NCBI GenBank assembly: GCA_015065085.1
Contig: SVQW01000002.1
Location: 132,197-196,196, forward strand
Reading direction: 5' to 3'
Length of the DNA stretch: 64,000 bases
Source of the DNA: Oscillospiraceae bacterium
GTDB lineage: Bacteria; Bacillota; Clostridia; Oscillospirales; SIG627
Positions within the stretch are counted from its first letter, which is position 1, and each line of letters starts with the position of its first letter. Positions 1,620-57,617 of the stretch are shown here, in pieces. A model generated the notes under the pieces. The model was not told the DNA's origin. It did no database searches and saw only the letters and a list, made by a program, of their open reading frames with translations. A program made the translations under genes and the position numbers.

Positions 1620-1692
1620 TGGAGCATAGGGGACTTGAACCCCTGACCCCCACACTGCCAGTGTGATGCGCTCCCAACTGCGCTAATGCCCC
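1620..1692 (-). tRNA. tRNA-Ala (anticodon GGC)
   Basis: The 73-nt reverse complement GGGGCATTAGCGCAGTTGGGAGCGCATCACACTGGCAGTGTGGGGGTCAGGGGTTCAAGTCCCCTATGCTCCA folds as a cloverleaf. It has a 7-bp acceptor stem with the G3:U70 alanine identity pair, a GCGC D stem, anticodon loop CTGGCAG and a GGTTCAAGT T-loop. CCA is not encoded. Confidence 0.93.
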
Positions 1693-51041: not shown

Positions 51042-51872
51042 ATGAAGAAAATTCTTTCCATCCTTTTGGTACTTACAATGGCATTTGCTGTTCTCGGTCT
51101 GGCTTCCTGCACACAGGCACCCGTCGAGACTCCCGATGATGAAACTCCCGCAGAGCCCGACACCCTTGTTTGCGGCGTTACCATCTTTGAAAACATGAAT
51201 GAAAAAGACGAAAACGGTAACTGGACCGGCTTTGAGTCCGACTTTGCAGTAGAAGTCGGCAAGCTTATCGGCATGAACGTTGAGTTCCAGGAAATTGACT
51301 GGTCTCAGAAGTACAATGAGCTCAACTCCGGCGCTATCGACTGCATCTGGAACGGCTTCACCGCAAACTCCGCAGACAACGGAATTGCACGCTCCGAGCT
51401 CGTTGATTTCTCCTACGGCTATATGCTCAACCAGCAGTGCATCGTAACAAAGGCTGACAAGGTTGCTGAATTTGCAACTGCCGCTGACCTTGCAGGCAAG
51501 ACTGCTTGCGTTGAAGGCGGAAGCGCAGGTGCTGCTTACGCAGAGTCCGTAACCGACGCTGACAAAATCTTCGCTACCACCGCTCAGATCAATGCTTTCA
51601 CCGAAGTTAAATCCGGTGCTGTTGACTTTGCAGTAGTTGACATCATTCTTGCTCAGAACATTTGCGGAAACGGTGACTATGCAGACCTTGCTATTGTTGA
51701 AGCAATCGAGCTTGACTCTGAAATCTATGCTATCGGCTTCAAGAAGGGCAGCGAGCTTACCGCAAAGGTAAACGAAGCCATCAAGACTCTGGAAGCAAAC
51801 GGCAAGCTTATGGAGCTGGCTACAAAATACGGCTTTGAAAACGTTCTGAAGGTTTCCGAAACCATCGAATAA
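51042..51872 (+). CDS. amino-acid ABC transporter substrate-binding lipoprotein
   Basis: Lipobox LGLASC. Periplasmic-binding type-II fold pattern (FESDFAVEVGKLIG, DCIWNGFT). GAGGAAAA RBS. Confidence 0.9.
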   Translation: MKKILSILLVLTMAFAVLGLASCTQAPVETPDDETPAEPDTLVCGVTIFENMNEKDENGNWTGFESDFAVEVGKLIGMNVEFQEIDWSQKYNELNSGAIDCIWNGFTANSADNGIARSELVDFSYGYMLNQQCIVTKADKVAEFATAADLAGKTACVEGGSAGAAYAESVTDADKIFATTAQINAFTEVKSGAVDFAVVDIILAQNICGNGDYADLAIVEAIELDSEIYAIGFKKGSELTAKVNEAIKTLEANGKLMELATKYGFENVLKVSETIE

Positions 51873-51896
51873 TATTCACTTTAAAGGAAATAAATA

Positions 51897-52541
51897 ATGG
51901 GATTCTGGGATGTAAATTTAAGCCTTTTCGGCGGATTAAAATACACCTGCCTGATATTTGCGCTAACACTTGTGTTAGCGCTTCCTTTAGGTTTGGTGAT
52001 AGCATTCGGCTCAATGTCAAAATTCAAACCGCTTTCCTACCTTGTCAAAACCTTTGTATGGGTAATACGCGGCGTACCATTGATGCTTCAGGTAATCATA
52101 TTCTTCTACGTCCCCGGCTTTATGCTGGGTACACCTATACTTTCGCGTTTTAATTCCGTTATTGCGGCGTTTGTGATAAACTACGCCTGTTATTTTTCGG
52201 AAATCTACCGTGGTGGTATTGAGTCCATCTCAAAGGGTCAGTACGAGGCAGGTCAGGTGCTGGGCATGACGAAAAGCCAGATATTCTTCAAGGTTGTGCT
52301 CATGCAGGTGGTAAAACGCATTCTTCCCCCTATGTCCAACGAGGTCATAACACTTGTAAAGGATACCGCACTTGCCAGAGTTATAATGATTGTTGAAATT
52401 CTCCAGGCGGCACAGAATTTCGCTGCCTACGGTCTTATGTGGCCCCTGTTCTACACGGCTGTATTCTACCTTGCATTTGTCGGAATACTTACGCTTCTGT
52501 TCGGATATTTTGAGAGAAAGCTCTCATATTACAGAGTTTAA
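51897..52541 (+). CDS. amino-acid ABC transporter permease
   Basis: HisM/GlnP-type permease with an EAA-like loop ([24 protein letters not shown]). Confidence 0.9.
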
Positions 52542-52552
52542 GGAGGGTATGT

Positions 52553-53347
52553 ATGGCATTTCTTAATGTTGAAAGCATAAAAAAGCGCTTCGGCTCAAAC
52601 GAGGTTCTCAAGAACATCTCCTTCAGCCTCGAAAAGGGCGAGGTGCTCGCCATAATAGGCTCCTCGGGAAGCGGTAAAACCACTCTTTTAAGATGTCTCA
52701 ATTTTCTTGAAAAAGCAGACAGCGGAAAAATAACCGTTGGTAACGAGCTTCTTTTCGACGGCGACGACAAAAACACCTTCAACGAAAAAACAATCCGCGA
52801 AAAAAGGCTTCATTTCGGTCTTGTTTTCCAATCGTTCAATCTTTTCCCGCAATATACGGCGCTTAAAAATATAACTCTTGCACCCGAAATGCATCTCGCC
52901 GAGCGTGCGTCAAAAGCAAAAATGTCTCACGCCGAAAAGCGTGCAGAGCACGATAAAATTCTGCAAAACGCAAAAACGCTTCTGGATAGTGTGGGGCTTT
53001 CAATGAAAGCAGAAGCATATCCCTGCGAGCTTTCGGGCGGTCAGTGCCAGCGTGTTGCCATCGCCCGTGCATTGGCGCTCAGTCCCGACGTACTGTGCTT
53101 TGACGAGCCCACTTCGGCTCTTGATCCTGAGCTTACAGGCGAAGTACTGAGAGTTATCAGGGACCTTAAATCCAGTGACCGCACTATGATAGTGGTTACG
53201 CACGAAATGGAATTTGCGCGCAATGTTGCCGACCGTGTTATATTTATGTCGGACGGTGTAATTGAGGAAGAAGGCACTCCCGAAGAAGTTTTTGACAATC
53301 CAAAAAGTCCCAGAACACGTGAGTTTCTCACACGGCCTGAATTTTAA
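52553..53347 (+). CDS. amino-acid ABC transporter ATP-binding protein
   Basis: Walker [10 protein letters not shown], signature [15 protein letters not shown], Walker [12 protein letters not shown]. Confidence 0.93.
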
Positions 53348-53352
53348 ATACA

Positions 53353-53388
53353 ATCGGTATGCGTACATACGCATGCCGATTTTTTTTG
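53353..53388 (+). terminator. intrinsic terminator of the ABC operon
   Basis: 13-bp stem ATCGGTATGCGTA / TACGCATGCCGAT (one G-U pair), followed by a T-run (7-8 T). Confidence 0.8.
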
Positions 53389-53408: not shown

Positions 53409-53437
53409 TTGACAAACGCATTTTTTTCTGATATAAT
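53409..53437 (+). promoter_or_regulatory. consensus sigma-A promoter driving the T-box leader
   Basis: TTGACA (53409-53414), 17-nt spacer, TATAAT (53432-53437). Confidence 0.65.
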
Positions 53438-53459
53438 ACGTGACAATATTAAACGCGTT

Positions 53460-53727
53460 GACGCGGAATAGTATGCAACAGAATTTCACCTTCAGAGAGA
53501 TGCCGTACGGTGCGAGGCATTGGGAAAGAATTGCAGAACTCACCGCCGAGCGGCTGCCATGAAAACAAGAAGTAATGACAGACGGGCGCTCCCGTAACAG
53601 AGTAAAGATGTGTTTGCATCCGAGTGCATCCTTTAAGGATGAAAAAGAGTGGTACCGCGGAAGGTTAAAAATTTTGCAATTAACGCTTTCGTCTCTTTGA
53701 AACAACAAAGAGATGAAAGTTTTTTTG
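53460..53727 (+). promoter_or_regulatory. T-box riboswitch leader, leucine-specific (specifier CUC)
   Basis: Stem I with S-turn AGUA (53470-53473), AG box AGAGAGA (53494-53500) and distal loop GGUGCGAG. Specifier loop GAA-CUC-A (CUC at 53539-53541). F-box-like CCCGUAA. Stem III CATCC/GGATG. T-box AGAGUGGUACCGCG (53646-53659). 14-bp terminator stem 53686-53719 plus T7. AAAGAG of the T-box can pair with CUCUUU of the terminator (antiterminator). Confidence 0.85.
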
Positions 53728-53762
53728 TTGTTCGGAACAATGCCGAAAGGAGTTCATATTTC

Positions 53763-55151
53763 ATGAAAAAAATCAACATTTCTGACATCACCCTGAAAAA
53801 GCTGTCTCAGAGCCGTGAGGTCTCACTGCTTTTCCGTGAAAAAACCGCCATTGCTTCAGCCGCAGACAGCCTGGGGGCGGATGCCATAGAGCTTGCACCC
53901 GTAAAAAACATCCGAGAGGATACAATAATTTATAAAACAATTTCCGCCAATATCAAAAAATCCGCCATTGCTCTTCCGGTCGGTTTCACTGTTCAGGAGG
54001 TAGAAGCAGCATGGGAATGCATAAAGGATGCGGTTCACCCGCGTCTGCAGGTGGAGCTTCCCGTTTCCACCGTTCAGATGGAATATGCTTATCATGTGAA
54101 AGCTGACAAAATGCTTGAAAAGATAGCCGAGCTGACCGCAAAAGCAAAGTCACTGTGCGAGGATGTGGAGTTATGCGCACTGGATGCCACACGCGCAGAT
54201 GAGGATTTTCTTTTAAAGGCAATAAGCACCGCTCAGCAAAACGGTGCGGGTATCATTACGGTATGCGATGATGCCGGAACAGCTTTGGTGCAGGAGATAT
54301 CGGCACTCACTGCAAAAATTAAAGCTCACACCGAGCTTCCCGTATACATTCAGGTTTCCGATGCGCTTGGTATGGCAGTCGCATCCGCTGTCGCCGCCAT
54401 CGGTGCCGGCGCAGACGGTCTTAAATGTGCAATGGCAGGCGAAAATGCACTTTCAATGGGCGCTGTTTCCAATGCTGTGGCTGCACGCGGAGACGCTATC
54501 GGTGCGAAAATTTCTCTCGAGCATACCCGTATACACGCAGGTATTGACGACCTGCTGTCAAAAATAAACCACGAAAGCTATGAAAGCGTCAACAATGTAA
54601 GCGAGAAGAAAAAAATACTTCTGGACACAGAAAGCACACTTTCCGATGTAGCTCATGCTGCATCCATTCTGGGCTATGACCTTTCGGACGAGGATGCGGG
54701 CAATGTTCACAAGGCTCTTTGTCAGGTGTGTGAGAAAAAGGGCTCGGTTGGTTCCAAGGAGCTGGAAGCTCTTATTGCAAGCTTTGCAATGCAGGCTCCA
54801 TCTACATATCATCTTGAAAGCTACACCACCACCAGTTCAAATGTTTCAAGCTCCATGTCCCAGGTAACACTTAAATGCGGCGAAGAACTGCTTTGCGGTG
54901 TCAGCACGGGCGACGGACCTATCGACTCGGTGTTCCGCGCCATTGAGCAAAGCATCGGACATCACTACGAGCTGGACGATTTCCAGATCCAGGCTGTCAC
55001 CGACGGAAAAGAGGCTCTCGGCTCCGCAGTGGTCAAGCTGAGAAACAACGGCAAGCTGTATTCCGGCAACGGTATTTCCACCGACATTGTGGCGGCAAGT
55101 ATAAGAGCTTATATCAACGCACTTAACAAGATAGTTTTCGAGGAGGCTTAA
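53763..55151 (+). CDS. 2-isopropylmalate-synthase-like protein with degenerate catalytic site and intact LeuA C-terminal regulatory domain
   Basis: Collinear with LeuA, but DTTLRDGEQ is replaced by SDITLKKLSQ, HxH...AN by IQVSDALGMAVAS, and GIGERAGNA by AGENALSMGA. The C-terminus is GDGPIDSVFRAIE...GISTDIVAASIRAYINALNKI. Start moved to ATG 53763 (AAAGGAG upstream). The track start lies inside the T-box leader. Confidence 0.8.
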   Translation: MKKINISDITLKKLSQSREVSLLFREKTAIASAADSLGADAIELAPVKNIREDTIIYKTISANIKKSAIALPVGFTVQEVEAAWECIKDAVHPRLQVELPVSTVQMEYAYHVKADKMLEKIAELTAKAKSLCEDVELCALDATRADEDFLLKAISTAQQNGAGIITVCDDAGTALVQEISALTAKIKAHTELPVYIQVSDALGMAVASAVAAIGAGADGLKCAMAGENALSMGAVSNAVAARGDAIGAKISLEHTRIHAGIDDLLSKINHESYESVNNVSEKKKILLDTESTLSDVAHAASILGYDLSDEDAGNVHKALCQVCEKKGSVGSKELEALIASFAMQAPSTYHLESYTTTSSNVSSSMSQVTLKCGEELLCGVSTGDGPIDSVFRAIEQSIGHHYELDDFQIQAVTDGKEALGSAVVKLRNNGKLYSGNGISTDIVAASIRAYINALNKIVFEEA

Positions 55152-55157
55152 TTTAAA

Positions 55158-57617
55158 ATGAAGCTTACCTTTTCGACAAAACACGTAAACCGCACGTCAT
55201 TTCTTGAAACTTGCAAATTTGCTTACGATTACGGATTTGCAGGCTTTGAGATCTACGATGCAATAAAGGAAAGAAAACAACATTACGACAGCATTCTCAG
55301 AAGTGACCGCGTTTCGGACTCAAAACGCAAGCTGGTTAACCGCAATCTCAATGTTTCGGCGCTGGTATATCCTTATGAGCTGGAAAGCGAGCAGGCAGAT
55401 GCTCAGACCATTCTCAGATATGTGGAGATGGCGCGCAACGCAGGTATAGAGCGTGTTATACTGCACATTGACGAAAAAACCGACAATGAAAATCTCCGCC
55501 AAAAGCTCAGCGATGCAATAAAGTACGCAGAAACGGCGGATATTCAGATACTTTTTGAAACATCGGGCTTTCTCTGCGAGACCGAAAATGTTATAGATAT
55601 TATCAACTTTTTCTCCTCCGCTGTAATAGGAGCTTCGTGGAATGTGCGCGAAACATATTTCACCGCCGGCGAAAGTGCGGAAACCACTATAAAAAATCTC
55701 GGTGCGTATATAAAATATGTCCGTCTGGGTGACAAAAAAGACGGCAGAACGGTGCTTATCGGTGAGGGTGAACTGCCCGTCAACAGCTTTTTAAACGCTC
55801 TTTCATCCCTCAATTATGACGGCTATATCTGTGCTGCCTGGAACGAGGAGATAAATGATGCGGATATAGTTCTTACCCATTTCACAAATTATATATCCGG
55901 GCTCTCGCGTGATAAAAAGGAATTCGACCGCACTTACTATAACCGTGACAAGTCGGGAACCTTTGTATGGAAAAAATACGACGTTATCGATGCAACCTTC
56001 TCCGACGTACTGGATACCATGGCTGAACGGTATCCTGACCAGTACGCTTTTAAATACACCACACTGGATTACACCAGAACCTACACCCAGTTCAGACGTG
56101 ATGTGGACGAATGTGCCGCCGCACTTATTTCACTGGGCGTAAAGGCGGGAGACCATGTTGCAATATGGGCAACAAACGTGCCCGCATGGTTTATAACCTT
56201 CTGGGCAACTACAAAAATCGGTGCAGTGCTTGTAACGGTTAATACGGCATACAAAATACACGAAATAGAATATCTTCTGCGTCAGTCAGACACACACACA
56301 CTGGTAATGATAGAGGAATTAAAAGATATTAATTACCGAGAAATAATCAAGGAGCTTTGTCCCGAGCTCAAGAGTCTTACACCGGGTCAGCCGCTTTATT
56401 CCAAGAATCTCCCATTCCTGCGCAATGTAGTAACAGTGGGCTTTTCCATGGACGGCTGTCTTACCTGGGAACAAATGCTGGAGCGCAGTAAGCTTATTCC
56501 TCACGAAGAAGTACGCCGCCGCGCCTCTCTTGTCAAGCCCGATGACGTGTGCAATATGCAGTATACCTCAGGAACAACAGGCTTTCCCAAGGGTGTTATG
56601 CTTACCCACAGAAACATTGTCAACAACGGCAAAACAATTGGAGACAGAATGGATCTTTCAACTGCTGACCGCATGATGGTACAGGTACCCATGTTCCACT
56701 GCTTCGGAATGGTGCTTTCCATGACCTCCACCATGACTCACGGCGGAACGCTGTGCCCTATGCCGTATTTCTCACCAAAATCCTCACTGGCATGTGTAAA
56801 TGATGAACACATCACCTGCTTCAACGGTGTCCCTACCATGTTTATCGCAATGTTCAATCACGCAGATTTTGCAAAAACTGACTTTTCGTATATGCGCACC
56901 GGCATTATGGCAGGTGCAAACTGCCCTGCCGACCTTATGCGCCGTGCCGCAGCCGAAATGAACATGAGAGAAATCATCTCGGTTTACGGACAGACCGAAG
57001 CTTCCCCCGGATGCACCATGGGCGAAGTGAATGAGGATATCGACCACCGTGTCGAAACAGTGGGAAGTCCTTTCCCGGGTGTAGAATGCAAAGTTATTGA
57101 CCCGGAAACGGGCGAAGAGCTTCCGGACGGCGAAAGCGGTGAATTTGTGGCGCGCGGCTTCAACATTATGAAAGGCTACTACAAAATGCCGGAAGCCACC
57201 GCACAGACCATTGATGCAGACGGATGGCTCCATTCCGGAGATATATGCTGCCGCACTCCAGACGGATACTACAAGGTTACAGGCCGTCTTAAAGATATGA
57301 TAATCCGCGGAGGTGAAAACCTGTACCCCCGCGAAATAGAAGAATTTTATCTCACAAATCCCAAGGTTCGCGACGTTCAGGTAGTAGGTGTTCCGGACAA
57401 AACCTACGGCGAAGAATGCTGTGCATGGATAATTCTTCACAATGGCGAAACAGCTGACGAGGCTGAAATGAAAGACTTCGGTAACGCATCCATAGCAAAG
57501 CACAAAGTGCCCAGATACTTCCTGTTCGTGAAGGAATTCCCCATGAATGCCGCAGGAAAAATACTCAAATACAAAATGCGTGAAGAATCGGTTGAAATAC
57601 TGGGAATAAAAAAATAA
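55158..57617 (+). CDS. fusion protein: xylose-isomerase-like TIM barrel (AP_endonuc_2 family) + AMP-forming acyl-CoA/acyl-adenylate ligase
   Basis: N-terminal ~260 aa have the sugar-phosphate isomerase/epimerase pattern (GFAGFEIY...ARNAGIERVILH...ILFETSG...YVRLGD...YDGYICAAWNEE). C-terminal ~550 aa carry YTSGTTGFPKGV, GWLHSGD and IIRGGENLYP. Confidence 0.85.
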   Translation: MKLTFSTKHVNRTSFLETCKFAYDYGFAGFEIYDAIKERKQHYDSILRSDRVSDSKRKLVNRNLNVSALVYPYELESEQADAQTILRYVEMARNAGIERVILHIDEKTDNENLRQKLSDAIKYAETADIQILFETSGFLCETENVIDIINFFSSAVIGASWNVRETYFTAGESAETTIKNLGAYIKYVRLGDKKDGRTVLIGEGELPVNSFLNALSSLNYDGYICAAWNEEINDADIVLTHFTNYISGLSRDKKEFDRTYYNRDKSGTFVWKKYDVIDATFSDVLDTMAERYPDQYAFKYTTLDYTRTYTQFRRDVDECAAALISLGVKAGDHVAIWATNVPAWFITFWATTKIGAVLVTVNTAYKIHEIEYLLRQSDTHTLVMIEELKDINYREIIKELCPELKSLTPGQPLYSKNLPFLRNVVTVGFSMDGCLTWEQMLERSKLIPHEEVRRRASLVKPDDVCNMQYTSGTTGFPKGVMLTHRNIVNNGKTIGDRMDLSTADRMMVQVPMFHCFGMVLSMTSTMTHGGTLCPMPYFSPKSSLACVNDEHITCFNGVPTMFIAMFNHADFAKTDFSYMRTGIMAGANCPADLMRRAAAEMNMREIISVYGQTEASPGCTMGEVNEDIDHRVETVGSPFPGVECKVIDPETGEELPDGESGEFVARGFNIMKGYYKMPEATAQTIDADGWLHSGDICCRTPDGYYKVTGRLKDMIIRGGENLYPREIEEFYLTNPKVRDVQVVGVPDKTYGEECCAWIILHNGETADEAEMKDFGNASIAKHKVPRYFLFVKEFPMNAAGKILKYKMREESVEILGIKK

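Follow-up and report, generated by a model that had tools for sequence, protein, structure and literature searches.

A LeuA-like protein without catalytic motifs, encoded beside a proposed isovalerate-CoA ligase, as a probable leucine sensor

Analysis of a 64,000-nucleotide stretch of an Oscillospiraceae bacterium contig (SVQW01000002.1, positions 132,197 to 196,196, assembly GCA_015065085.1; hereafter the window) showed that the ORF at 53763-55151 encodes a 462-aa paralogue of 2-isopropylmalate synthase (LeuA/IPMS) that has lost its catalytic machinery but has kept an intact LeuA regulatory domain. The protein belongs to a widespread family without functional annotation and is probably the leucine sensor for a neighbouring ligase, inferred to be an isovalerate-CoA ligase, that would let gut and rumen bacteria make leucine from isovalerate. 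The sequence-only reading, which took the gene for a pseudoenzyme repurposed as a leucine-sensing or scaffolding subunit that may regulate the co-transcribed ligase fusion, was confirmed in its observation and supported in its interpretation. The protein is identical to NCBI MBE6688310.1, all named members of the family are annotated "hypothetical protein", and no paper describing the family was found. The features of the locus were as follows:

53352..53381 (+), intrinsic terminator (13-bp stem followed by a T-run) that closes the upstream amino-acid ABC transporter operon and separates it from the unit described here
53409..53437 (+), σ70-type promoter of the unit, TTGACA-17-TATAAT with an extended -10 TG (consensus match only)
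53449..53699 (+), T-box leader, with the leucine specifier CUC at 53539-53541, the T-box core AGTGGTACCGCG at 53648-53659 and a terminator hairpin at 53685-53720
53745..53752 (+), ribosome-binding site GAAAGGAG, 10 nt before the ATG
53763..55151 (+), LeuA-like pseudoenzyme, 462 aa
53763..54542 (+), degenerate DRE-TIM (HMGL-like) barrel, residues 1-260, with the former catalytic motifs at 53784-53810 (DITLKKLSQ for DTTLRDGEQ), 54348-54377 (IQVSDALGMA for HxHxDLGxA) and 54435-54464 (AGENALSMGA for GIGERAGNA)
54576..54605 (+), remnant of accessory subdomain I, where about 40 residues including the canonical HESGIHQDG motif are deleted (between residues 276 and 277)
54753..55148 (+), intact LeuA regulatory/dimerisation domain (PF08502), residues 331-462, with the invariant helix N-cap motifs GDGPID (54909-54926) and GNGISTD (55065-55085)
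55158..57617 (+), partner gene, an 819-aa fusion of a xylose-isomerase-like TIM barrel and an AMP-forming acyl-CoA ligase, starting 6 nt after the LeuA-like stop codon
55158..55967 (+), N-terminal xylose-isomerase-like TIM domain of the fusion
55983..57614 (+), AMP-forming acyl-CoA ligase domain, proposed to be an isovalerate-CoA ligase

The Pfam search showed an HMGL-like barrel (PF00682, 93 bits, residues 3-226) and a LeuA_dimer domain (PF08502, 108.6 bits against a cutoff of 24.9, profile positions 4-130 of 131). E-values of 1e-26 to 1e-31 for the two domains exclude a chance match. HMMER alignments to the solved IPMS structures 3EWB, 3RMJ and 6E1J placed DITLKKLSQ opposite DTTLRDGEQ (R to K, D to K, G to L, E to S), IQVSDALGMA opposite HCHDDLGMA (H to Q, H to S), and AGENAL opposite GIGERAGN with a 4-residue deletion. 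The sequence-only reading had given LKKLSQ for RDGEQ, which is off by one residue, as the aligned pentapeptide is KKLSQ. Further losses that it did not list were revealed by alignment with canonical LeuA: the His of TSxxH is Gln, the Glu of EDAxR is Leu, the Thr of DTVG is Asp, and the segment of accessory subdomain I that includes HESGIHQDG is deleted. In MtIPMS, R80K, R80A and E218A destroy activity (PMC10464499), and subdomain I is essential for catalysis (PMC9860122). All NCBIfam LeuA equivalogs scored far below cutoff, the best being NF002086 (238.2 bits against 532), while TIGR00973 scored 221 against 599.

The structure model (AF2, pLDDT 92.7) was a confident IPMS-type barrel plus a βββα×2 regulatory domain, and Foldseek gave an RMSD of 1.7-2.4 Å to the IPMS barrels (3EWB, 3EEG and 3RMJ). 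The predicted barrel was well folded (pLDDT above 95), and the only segment below 50 was residues 272-281, at the subdomain I deletion. A total of 265 representatives had E below 1e-30, and about 105 full-length clusters (at 50% identity) of 453-497 aa all lacked the motifs, whose metal ligands were present in the canonical sequences of the same alignment. The alternative that this is a genuine LeuA/CimA/NifV-type synthase with merely shifted residues, or a decaying pseudogene, has in its favour the collinear domain order and the significant LeuA HMM matches. However, three independent alignments placed the substitutions exactly at the motifs, the scores were less than half of every equivalog cutoff, and hundreds of intact, length-conserved orthologues down to 30% identity exclude decay, so that this alternative is effectively refuted.

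The regulatory domain was the most constrained part of the protein, with a within-family identity of 57% and a column entropy of 1.34 bits, against 35% and 2.32 bits for the barrel. Of the 10 invariant residues, 7 are in this domain, and 5 of them (G383, G385, G435, G437 and D441) sit just before helices 386-398 and 442-461 of the model, at the helix N-termini where the leucine carboxylate binds in MtIPMS (PMC11057210). A phmmer search of PDB sequences with the regulatory domain alone gave no LeuA or CimA hit, so the helix N-cap positions of the model and the published description were used in place of a one-to-one mapping of pocket residues onto 3FIG. An isolated PF08502 domain is a ligand-specific sensor (PMC13381585), but PF08502 domains bind Leu in LeuA and Ile in CimA, so the proposed specificity for leucine rests on the T-box and on LeuA-type ancestry. 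It is also possible, although doubtful, that the sensor reads isovalerate, 2-ketoisocaproate or isovaleryl-CoA, giving feed-forward activation or product control in place of end-product feedback. These ligands share the isobutyl side chain, and near-invariant barrel residues could still form a keto-acid or CoA site. Against this, the GDGPID and STD N-cap motifs that hold the amino-acid carboxylate are the same as in canonical LeuA, the T-box logic points to leucine, and the metal that holds the keto acid in LeuA is gone.

The former catalytic columns lay at the 85th-98th percentile of barrel variability, and no new invariant residue appeared there. Nine inherited barrel residues (D8, T10, S102, E107, Y108, K113, D141, R144 and D169) stay nearly invariant, so a residual ligand site or activity in the barrel is not excluded. 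A neo-functionalised enzyme, in which the barrel alone or together with the TIM domain of the ligase catalyses a new metal-independent reaction in the pathway, was considered unlikely. Its support is the well-folded barrel, these nine residues, and the full xylose-isomerase-type metal site that the TIM domain of the ligase still has in many distant lineages. However, all conserved barrel residues are inherited from LeuA, the isovalerate-to-leucine route needs no further enzyme, and a ligand table across 77 loci showed that the TIM-domain metal site is lost in the whole clade that includes the window (signature E-N-R-Y-R-D-A), yet the pairing persists.

The downstream fusion contained AP_endonuc_2 (PF01261, 55.6 bits), AMP-binding (PF00501, 322 bits) and AMP-binding_C (PF13193) domains. 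The TIM domain weakly matched MJ1311 (3WQO), while the fusion was PRK12583-like (665 bits against a cutoff of 832) and the ligase was below every curated cutoff. The fusion followed the LeuA-like gene in all 80 related loci with downstream DNA, including members at 30-33% identity, as a single ORF in 77 of 80 loci and with a gap of mostly -4 to +10 nt. The ligase was 67-94% identical across all loci. Divergence of the LeuA-like protein tracked the TIM domain (partial r 0.73) and not the ligase (0.18), although this could come from two fast-evolving segments saturating alike, and no Rosetta-stone fusion of the LeuA-like protein with the ligase appeared among the 150 representatives. A structural or activating subunit without leucine sensing, which would stabilise or activate the ligase or tether it to a 2-oxoisovalerate-type ferredoxin oxidoreductase (VOR) for channelling of isovaleryl-CoA, with PF08502 serving only for dimerisation, remains an unlikely alternative. 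The universal, translationally coupled pairing, the dimerisation role of PF08502 in LeuA, the co-variation with the TIM domain and the precedent of HisZ, a dead paralogue that activates its partner (PMC9734150), favour it. On the other hand, the invariant residues concentrate at the ligand-site helix N-caps and are not spread over a dimer surface, and a pure scaffold would not need the regulatory domain to be the most conserved part. As HisZ both activates and mediates feedback, the two readings are not exclusive.

The promoter was a 12 of 12 consensus match and the only perfect match in the 4.6 kb scanned. The leader matched Rfam RF00230 (128.1 bits against a gathering score of 93, full model 1-219), and the CM alignment showed the specifier CUC followed by a purine. 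Of 60 upstream T-box leaders in related loci, 53 were readable, and all 53 specified leucine (CUC, CUG or UUA), as verified by CM alignments in the window and in three related loci. The T-box was absent or unreadable in some loci, and a few heuristic specifier readings (His CAC in three loci; Pro, Ser, Trp and one UAG), made without CM alignment, may be mis-registered.

Branched-chain aminotransferase (BCAT, 506 bits against 307) and VorB (541 against 399) clusters lay within 10 kb in 22 of 31 long related loci, while tblastn found no BCAT, VOR or ferredoxin in the window, where the unit has only two genes. No canonical leuA was found in the window or in any fetched locus. Neighbouring ligases in related loci, for which MbcS of Staphylococcus aureus was the best curated match (441-443 bits), sat behind Ile (29 of 32) and Val (11 of 13) T-boxes. 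MbcS activates 2-methylbutyrate and isobutyrate but hardly accepts isovalerate (PMC10026030), feeds fatty-acid synthesis and is not fused to HTH-cupin domains, whereas the Leu-branch ligase in the window belongs to another family (PRK12583-like) and has the LeuA-like partner.

Taken with about even confidence, the gene encodes a non-catalytic paralogue that keeps the barrel as a scaffold and the allosteric domain as a working amino-acid sensor, and is made by translational coupling with the fusion from one transcript that a leucine-specific T-box switches on when tRNA-Leu is uncharged. From genomic context only, the ligase most likely activates isovalerate to isovaleryl-CoA, which VOR would reductively carboxylate to 2-ketoisocaproate and BCAT would convert to leucine. 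In the proposed mechanism, the pseudo-LeuA, probably a dimer, docks on the ligase, most plausibly on its N-terminal TIM domain, and when leucine fills the pocket between the two helix N-termini, the assembly rigidifies and the ligase is inhibited. This would give the ATP- and CoA-consuming first step fast feedback control on top of the slower T-box control. Leucine binding, contact with the fusion, and inhibition rather than activation or scaffolding are inferred. More tentatively, the LeuA allosteric domain may work in trans, clamping the degenerate TIM domain to form a heteromeric, feedback-inhibited first enzyme of a route that supplies, or replaces, de novo leucine synthesis in many uncultured gut and rumen anaerobes. 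With the sister Ile and Val T-box/HTH-cupin/MbcS-like ligases, this would be the genetic and regulatory blueprint of the 60-year-old isoacid to branched-chain amino acid pathway.

Compared with LeuA and its relatives CimA, MAM and homocitrate synthase, the protein has the same predicted barrel fold, domain order and C-terminal domain with the GDGPxD and STD motifs, but lacks every catalytic determinant tested. Offshoots such as MAM (6E1J) and plant citramalate synthase appear to have kept catalysis and lost the regulatory domain, and this family did the reverse. In HisZ, a catalytically dead HisRS paralogue and the regulatory subunit of short-form ATP phosphoribosyltransferase (HisG_S), a dead paralogue likewise keeps its ligand-binding ability and gives end-product control to an unrelated first-step enzyme (PMC9734150). 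The ancestry and the partner differ, and complex formation and allostery are demonstrated for HisZ and only inferred here. If confirmed, the family would add a clear bacterial example of pseudoenzyme-mediated feedback beside HisZ. IlvN/IlvH, the small subunit of acetohydroxyacid synthase, is also a separate polypeptide that binds a branched-chain amino acid, feedback-regulates a first-step enzyme and is usable as a stand-alone sensor (PMC13381585), but it is an ACT-domain protein and not a dead enzyme, and it regulates the de novo pathway, not a salvage route.

Rumen and gut fibre degraders have been known since the 1960s to need isoacids, which are used as feed additives, and to turn isovalerate, isobutyrate and 2-methylbutyrate into leucine, valine and isoleucine (PMC7356843). 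The classical work defined labelling patterns, not genes or regulation, and no paper was found that assigns these genes, the three T-boxes or the LeuA-like protein to the pathway. The gene set found with this family in related loci (an acyl-CoA ligase whose isovalerate substrate is inferred, VOR, ferredoxin and BCAT) matches that physiology, and comprises three ligases, each behind its own amino-acid-specific T-box, that share one VOR and one aminotransferase. If confirmed, the family would improve annotation of thousands of hypothetical proteins, could serve as a marker for isoacid-dependent leucine synthesis in metagenomes, and would offer a natural leucine-binding module for biosensor design. 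Members of the family were also present in Ruminococcus MAGs.

Analysis of the window showed that the ORF flagged in the sequence-only reading is real. An ATG at 53763 was located 10 nt after the RBS GAAAGGAG and the ORF ended at 55151, giving a protein of 462 aa. It was the first gene of a cleanly delimited unit, the features of which were as follows:

53352-53381, terminator after the upstream ABC-transporter ATPase gene
53409-53437, 12/12 σ70 consensus promoter with an extended -10 TG
53449-53699, T-box leader (Rfam RF00230, 128 bits against a gathering score of 93)
53685-53720, terminator of the T-box leader
53763-55151, LeuA-like gene
55158-57617, six bases later, an 819-aa gene that fuses a xylose-isomerase-like TIM barrel (PF01261) to an AMP-forming acyl-CoA ligase (PF00501 and PF13193)

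In the covariance-model alignment, the specifier position of the T-box read CUC followed by A, which is leucine. Directly upstream of the unit, but separated by its own terminator, was a three-gene polar-amino-acid-type ABC transporter (51042-53347; binding protein, permease and ATPase) which is not under the T-box. The Rfam scans also showed a tRNA gene in the window (1620-1692, minus strand) and a c-di-GMP-I riboswitch in a related locus, L005 (3634-3718, plus strand), neither of which is related to the finding.

The sequence-only reading, that the protein is a LeuA homologue which has lost its catalytic metal and substrate residues but kept the LeuA regulatory domain, was confirmed, and the losses extended further. 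Pfam showed an HMGL-like barrel (93 bits) and a full-length LeuA allosteric domain (108.6 bits, profile positions 4-130 of 131). HMMER alignments to three solved IPMS-family structures and a MAFFT alignment with canonical LeuAs agreed on the substitutions. DTTLRDGEQ was replaced by DITLKKLSQ, HCHxDLGxA by IQVSDALGMA, and GIGERAGNA by a shortened AGENAL, while the His of TSxxH was Gln, the Glu of EDAxR was Leu and the Thr of DTVG was Asp. About 40 residues of accessory subdomain I, including the HESGIHQDG motif, were missing. Published mutagenesis has shown that R80K, R80A and E218A destroy the activity of MtIPMS (PMC10464499) and that subdomain I is essential for catalysis and allostery (PMC9860122). 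Every NCBIfam LeuA/CimA/NifV model scored far below its cutoff, the best being 238 against 532. The protein therefore fails membership of LeuA as an enzyme while being a clear structural homologue, and it is almost certainly not an IPMS. The AlphaFold model had a pLDDT of 92.7, and its barrel superposed on IPMS barrels at 1.7-2.4 Å.

The protein belongs to a maintained family and is not a decaying gene. A word-indexed search returned more than 120 clusters at 71-79% identity, all of 461-462 aa. An exhaustive search of 50%-identity representatives showed 265 proteins with E below 1e-30, of which about 105 were full-length sequences of 453-497 aa, down to about 31% identity, while canonical LeuAs of 500-516 aa only appeared below about 218 bits. 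Every short-form representative lacked RDGEQ, HxH and GERAGN, while the canonical sequences in the same alignment kept them. Two full-length LeuA-like representatives from this search showed partial motif loss and kept the long subdomain I: P0251 (503 aa) read DSTLCEGER and HSQND, while P0262 (511 aa) read DTTLCDGEQ, IRAYND and GIGKRAGCA. These may be other, independent degenerate LeuA paralogues. All named members of the family are annotated as “hypothetical protein” in NCBI, and no NCBIfam or Pfam family is specific to them.

Within the family, the regulatory domain was the most constrained part (57% identity, 1.34 bits of mean column entropy), while the barrel had 35% and 2.32 bits and the linker had 26% and 2.65 bits. 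The former catalytic columns were among the most variable in the barrel, with the metal Asp at the 96th percentile, the first metal His at the 88th and the GERAGN Glu at the 98th, which argues against a rebuilt active site at the old location. However, nine inherited barrel residues remained nearly invariant and could form a residual site. Seven of the ten invariant residues were in the regulatory domain. G383 and G385, and G435, G437 and D441, were located immediately before the two helices of that domain, which start at residues 386 and 442 in the model. An isolated PF08502 domain from CimA has been shown to work as a stand-alone, ligand-specific sensor (PMC13381585). Leucine binding by the present protein is inferred and somewhat more likely than not. 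PF08502 can be Ile-specific, as in CimA.

A total of 80 loci were retrieved from named genomes. Most were rumen or gut MAGs of Acutalibacteraceae, Oscillospiraceae, Christensenellaceae, Lachnospiraceae and Ruminococcus, and they also included Synergistaceae, Salinivirgaceae, Eggerthellaceae and Coriobacteriaceae. In every locus with downstream DNA, the LeuA-like gene was followed by the TIM barrel and the ligase. These formed a single ORF in 77 of 80 loci, and the intergenic distance was mostly -4 to +10 nt, which indicates translational coupling. Two members at only 30-33% identity showed the same arrangement. The ligase was very conserved (67-94% identity, mean distance 0.25), while the LeuA-like protein (0.52) and the TIM domain (0.60) evolve fast and together. 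The partial correlation of LeuA-like divergence with the TIM domain, controlling for the ligase, was 0.73, and the converse was 0.18. This is suggestive, but it could partly reflect similar saturation of two fast-evolving segments. It is highly likely that the LeuA-like protein is a functional partner of the fusion.

The xylose-isomerase-like TIM domain fused to the ligase (55158-55967 in the window, and the same domain in loci L001-L081) was itself degenerating. The ancestral metal-ligand signature E-D-H-H-H-D-E was complete in some lineages, the first Glu was Lys in at least 9 loci, and the Asp or the last Glu was replaced in others. The signature was fully lost (E-N-R-Y-R-D-A) in the whole clade of about 33 loci that includes the window. 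In the window, therefore, both TIM barrels of the pair lack their ancestral metal sites. The gene pair also occurred outside Firmicutes, in L034 (Synergistaceae), L038 (Salinivirgaceae, Bacteroidota), and L072 and L077 (Eggerthellaceae, Coriobacteriaceae), with the ligase still 67-72% identical, which suggests horizontal spread. The Leu T-box travels with the pair into Synergistaceae and the Actinobacteria, but none was detected in the Bacteroidota locus.

The link to leucine was family-wide. A T-box core was located within 450 nt upstream of the LeuA-like gene in 60 loci. The specifier could be read in 53 of them, and all were leucine (CUC 47, CUG 5 and UUA 1). Rfam confirmed leaders at the gathering score in 9 of 18 diverse loci, and also in L007, L034 (Synergistaceae) and L072 (Eggerthellaceae), and the covariance-model alignments put CUC at the specifier position.

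In many loci, the gene pair was flanked by a class-IV aminotransferase that passed the BCAT equivalog cutoff (506 bits against 307), a ParA/CbiA-like protein, a ferredoxin, and a three-subunit 2-oxoacid:ferredoxin oxidoreductase, the α subunit of which passed the VorB model (541 bits against 399). Of 31 loci of at least 19 kb, 22 contained them, while the window itself had no VOR or BCAT. The ParA/CbiA-like protein is a conserved P-loop protein of about 225 aa that always sits between BCAT and the ferredoxin/VOR genes (L001 12939-13628, L007 20188-20856 and L083 10664-11335). It matched no NCBIfam family at E below 1e-10, and it may be a maturation or Fe-S delivery factor for VOR.

The same neighbourhoods carried one or two further ligases fused to, or preceded by, an HTH-cupin module. 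These were behind T-boxes with specifiers that read AUC (Ile; 29 of 32 precede such a ligase) or GUA/GUC (Val; 11 of 13). In these sister modules (L007 13908-19108, and also L001 16272-17386 and L083 13983-15071), T-box (Ile, AUC) and T-box (Val, GUA) leaders each preceded an HTH_XRE-cupin domain fused to an MbcS-like acyl-CoA ligase of about 770 aa, while in some loci the HTH-cupin was a separate 183-aa gene placed before the ligase. Three T-box leaders that precede paralogous ligases, at about 1014 in L015, about 6076 in L017 and about 5503 in L018 (all minus strand), were read heuristically as CAC (His) where sister loci have Val (GUA), which is either a register error of the heuristic or a real change of specifier. 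The best curated match of the further ligases behind the Ile and Val T-boxes was MbcS, which activates 2-methylbutyrate and isobutyrate with KM below 10 µM but hardly accepts isovalerate, with KM above 500 µM (PMC10026030).

Thus, three ligases, each keyed to one branched-chain amino acid, share one VOR and one BCAT. The leucine branch uses a different ligase family, which fits the substrate limits of MbcS-type enzymes. This matches the classical rumen physiology of leucine from isovalerate, valine from isobutyrate and isoleucine from 2-methylbutyrate (PMC7356843 and the Allison papers it cites). T-box control, which switches genes on when the cognate tRNA is uncharged, fits the biosynthetic direction. 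The gene pair is likely part of an isovalerate-to-leucine route, although the substrate of the ligase is inferred.

The mechanism proposed here is an inference. When leucine is scarce, the T-box would let the pair be transcribed, the ligase would convert isovalerate to isovaleryl-CoA at the cost of ATP and free CoA, and VOR and BCAT would then complete leucine synthesis. The dead LeuA keeps the part of LeuA that senses leucine and rigidifies the protein (PMC9860122). It would dock on the ligase, most plausibly on the degenerate TIM domain of the ligase itself, and shut the ligase off as soon as leucine returns, which would protect the CoA pool in an environment rich in isoacids. Inhibition of the ligase remains tentative. 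Dead-paralogue regulators and the LeuA regulatory domain are both known ideas, while a LeuA-derived pseudoenzyme tied to an acyl-CoA ligase is a variation on them for which the literature searches showed no description, and it makes an old physiological pathway testable at the gene level. The closest precedent in logic is HisZ with HisG_S (PMC9734150). The HTH-cupin modules on the Ile and Val ligases may play the analogous role, and the cupin may be the Ile/Val counterpart of the LeuA-like sensor.
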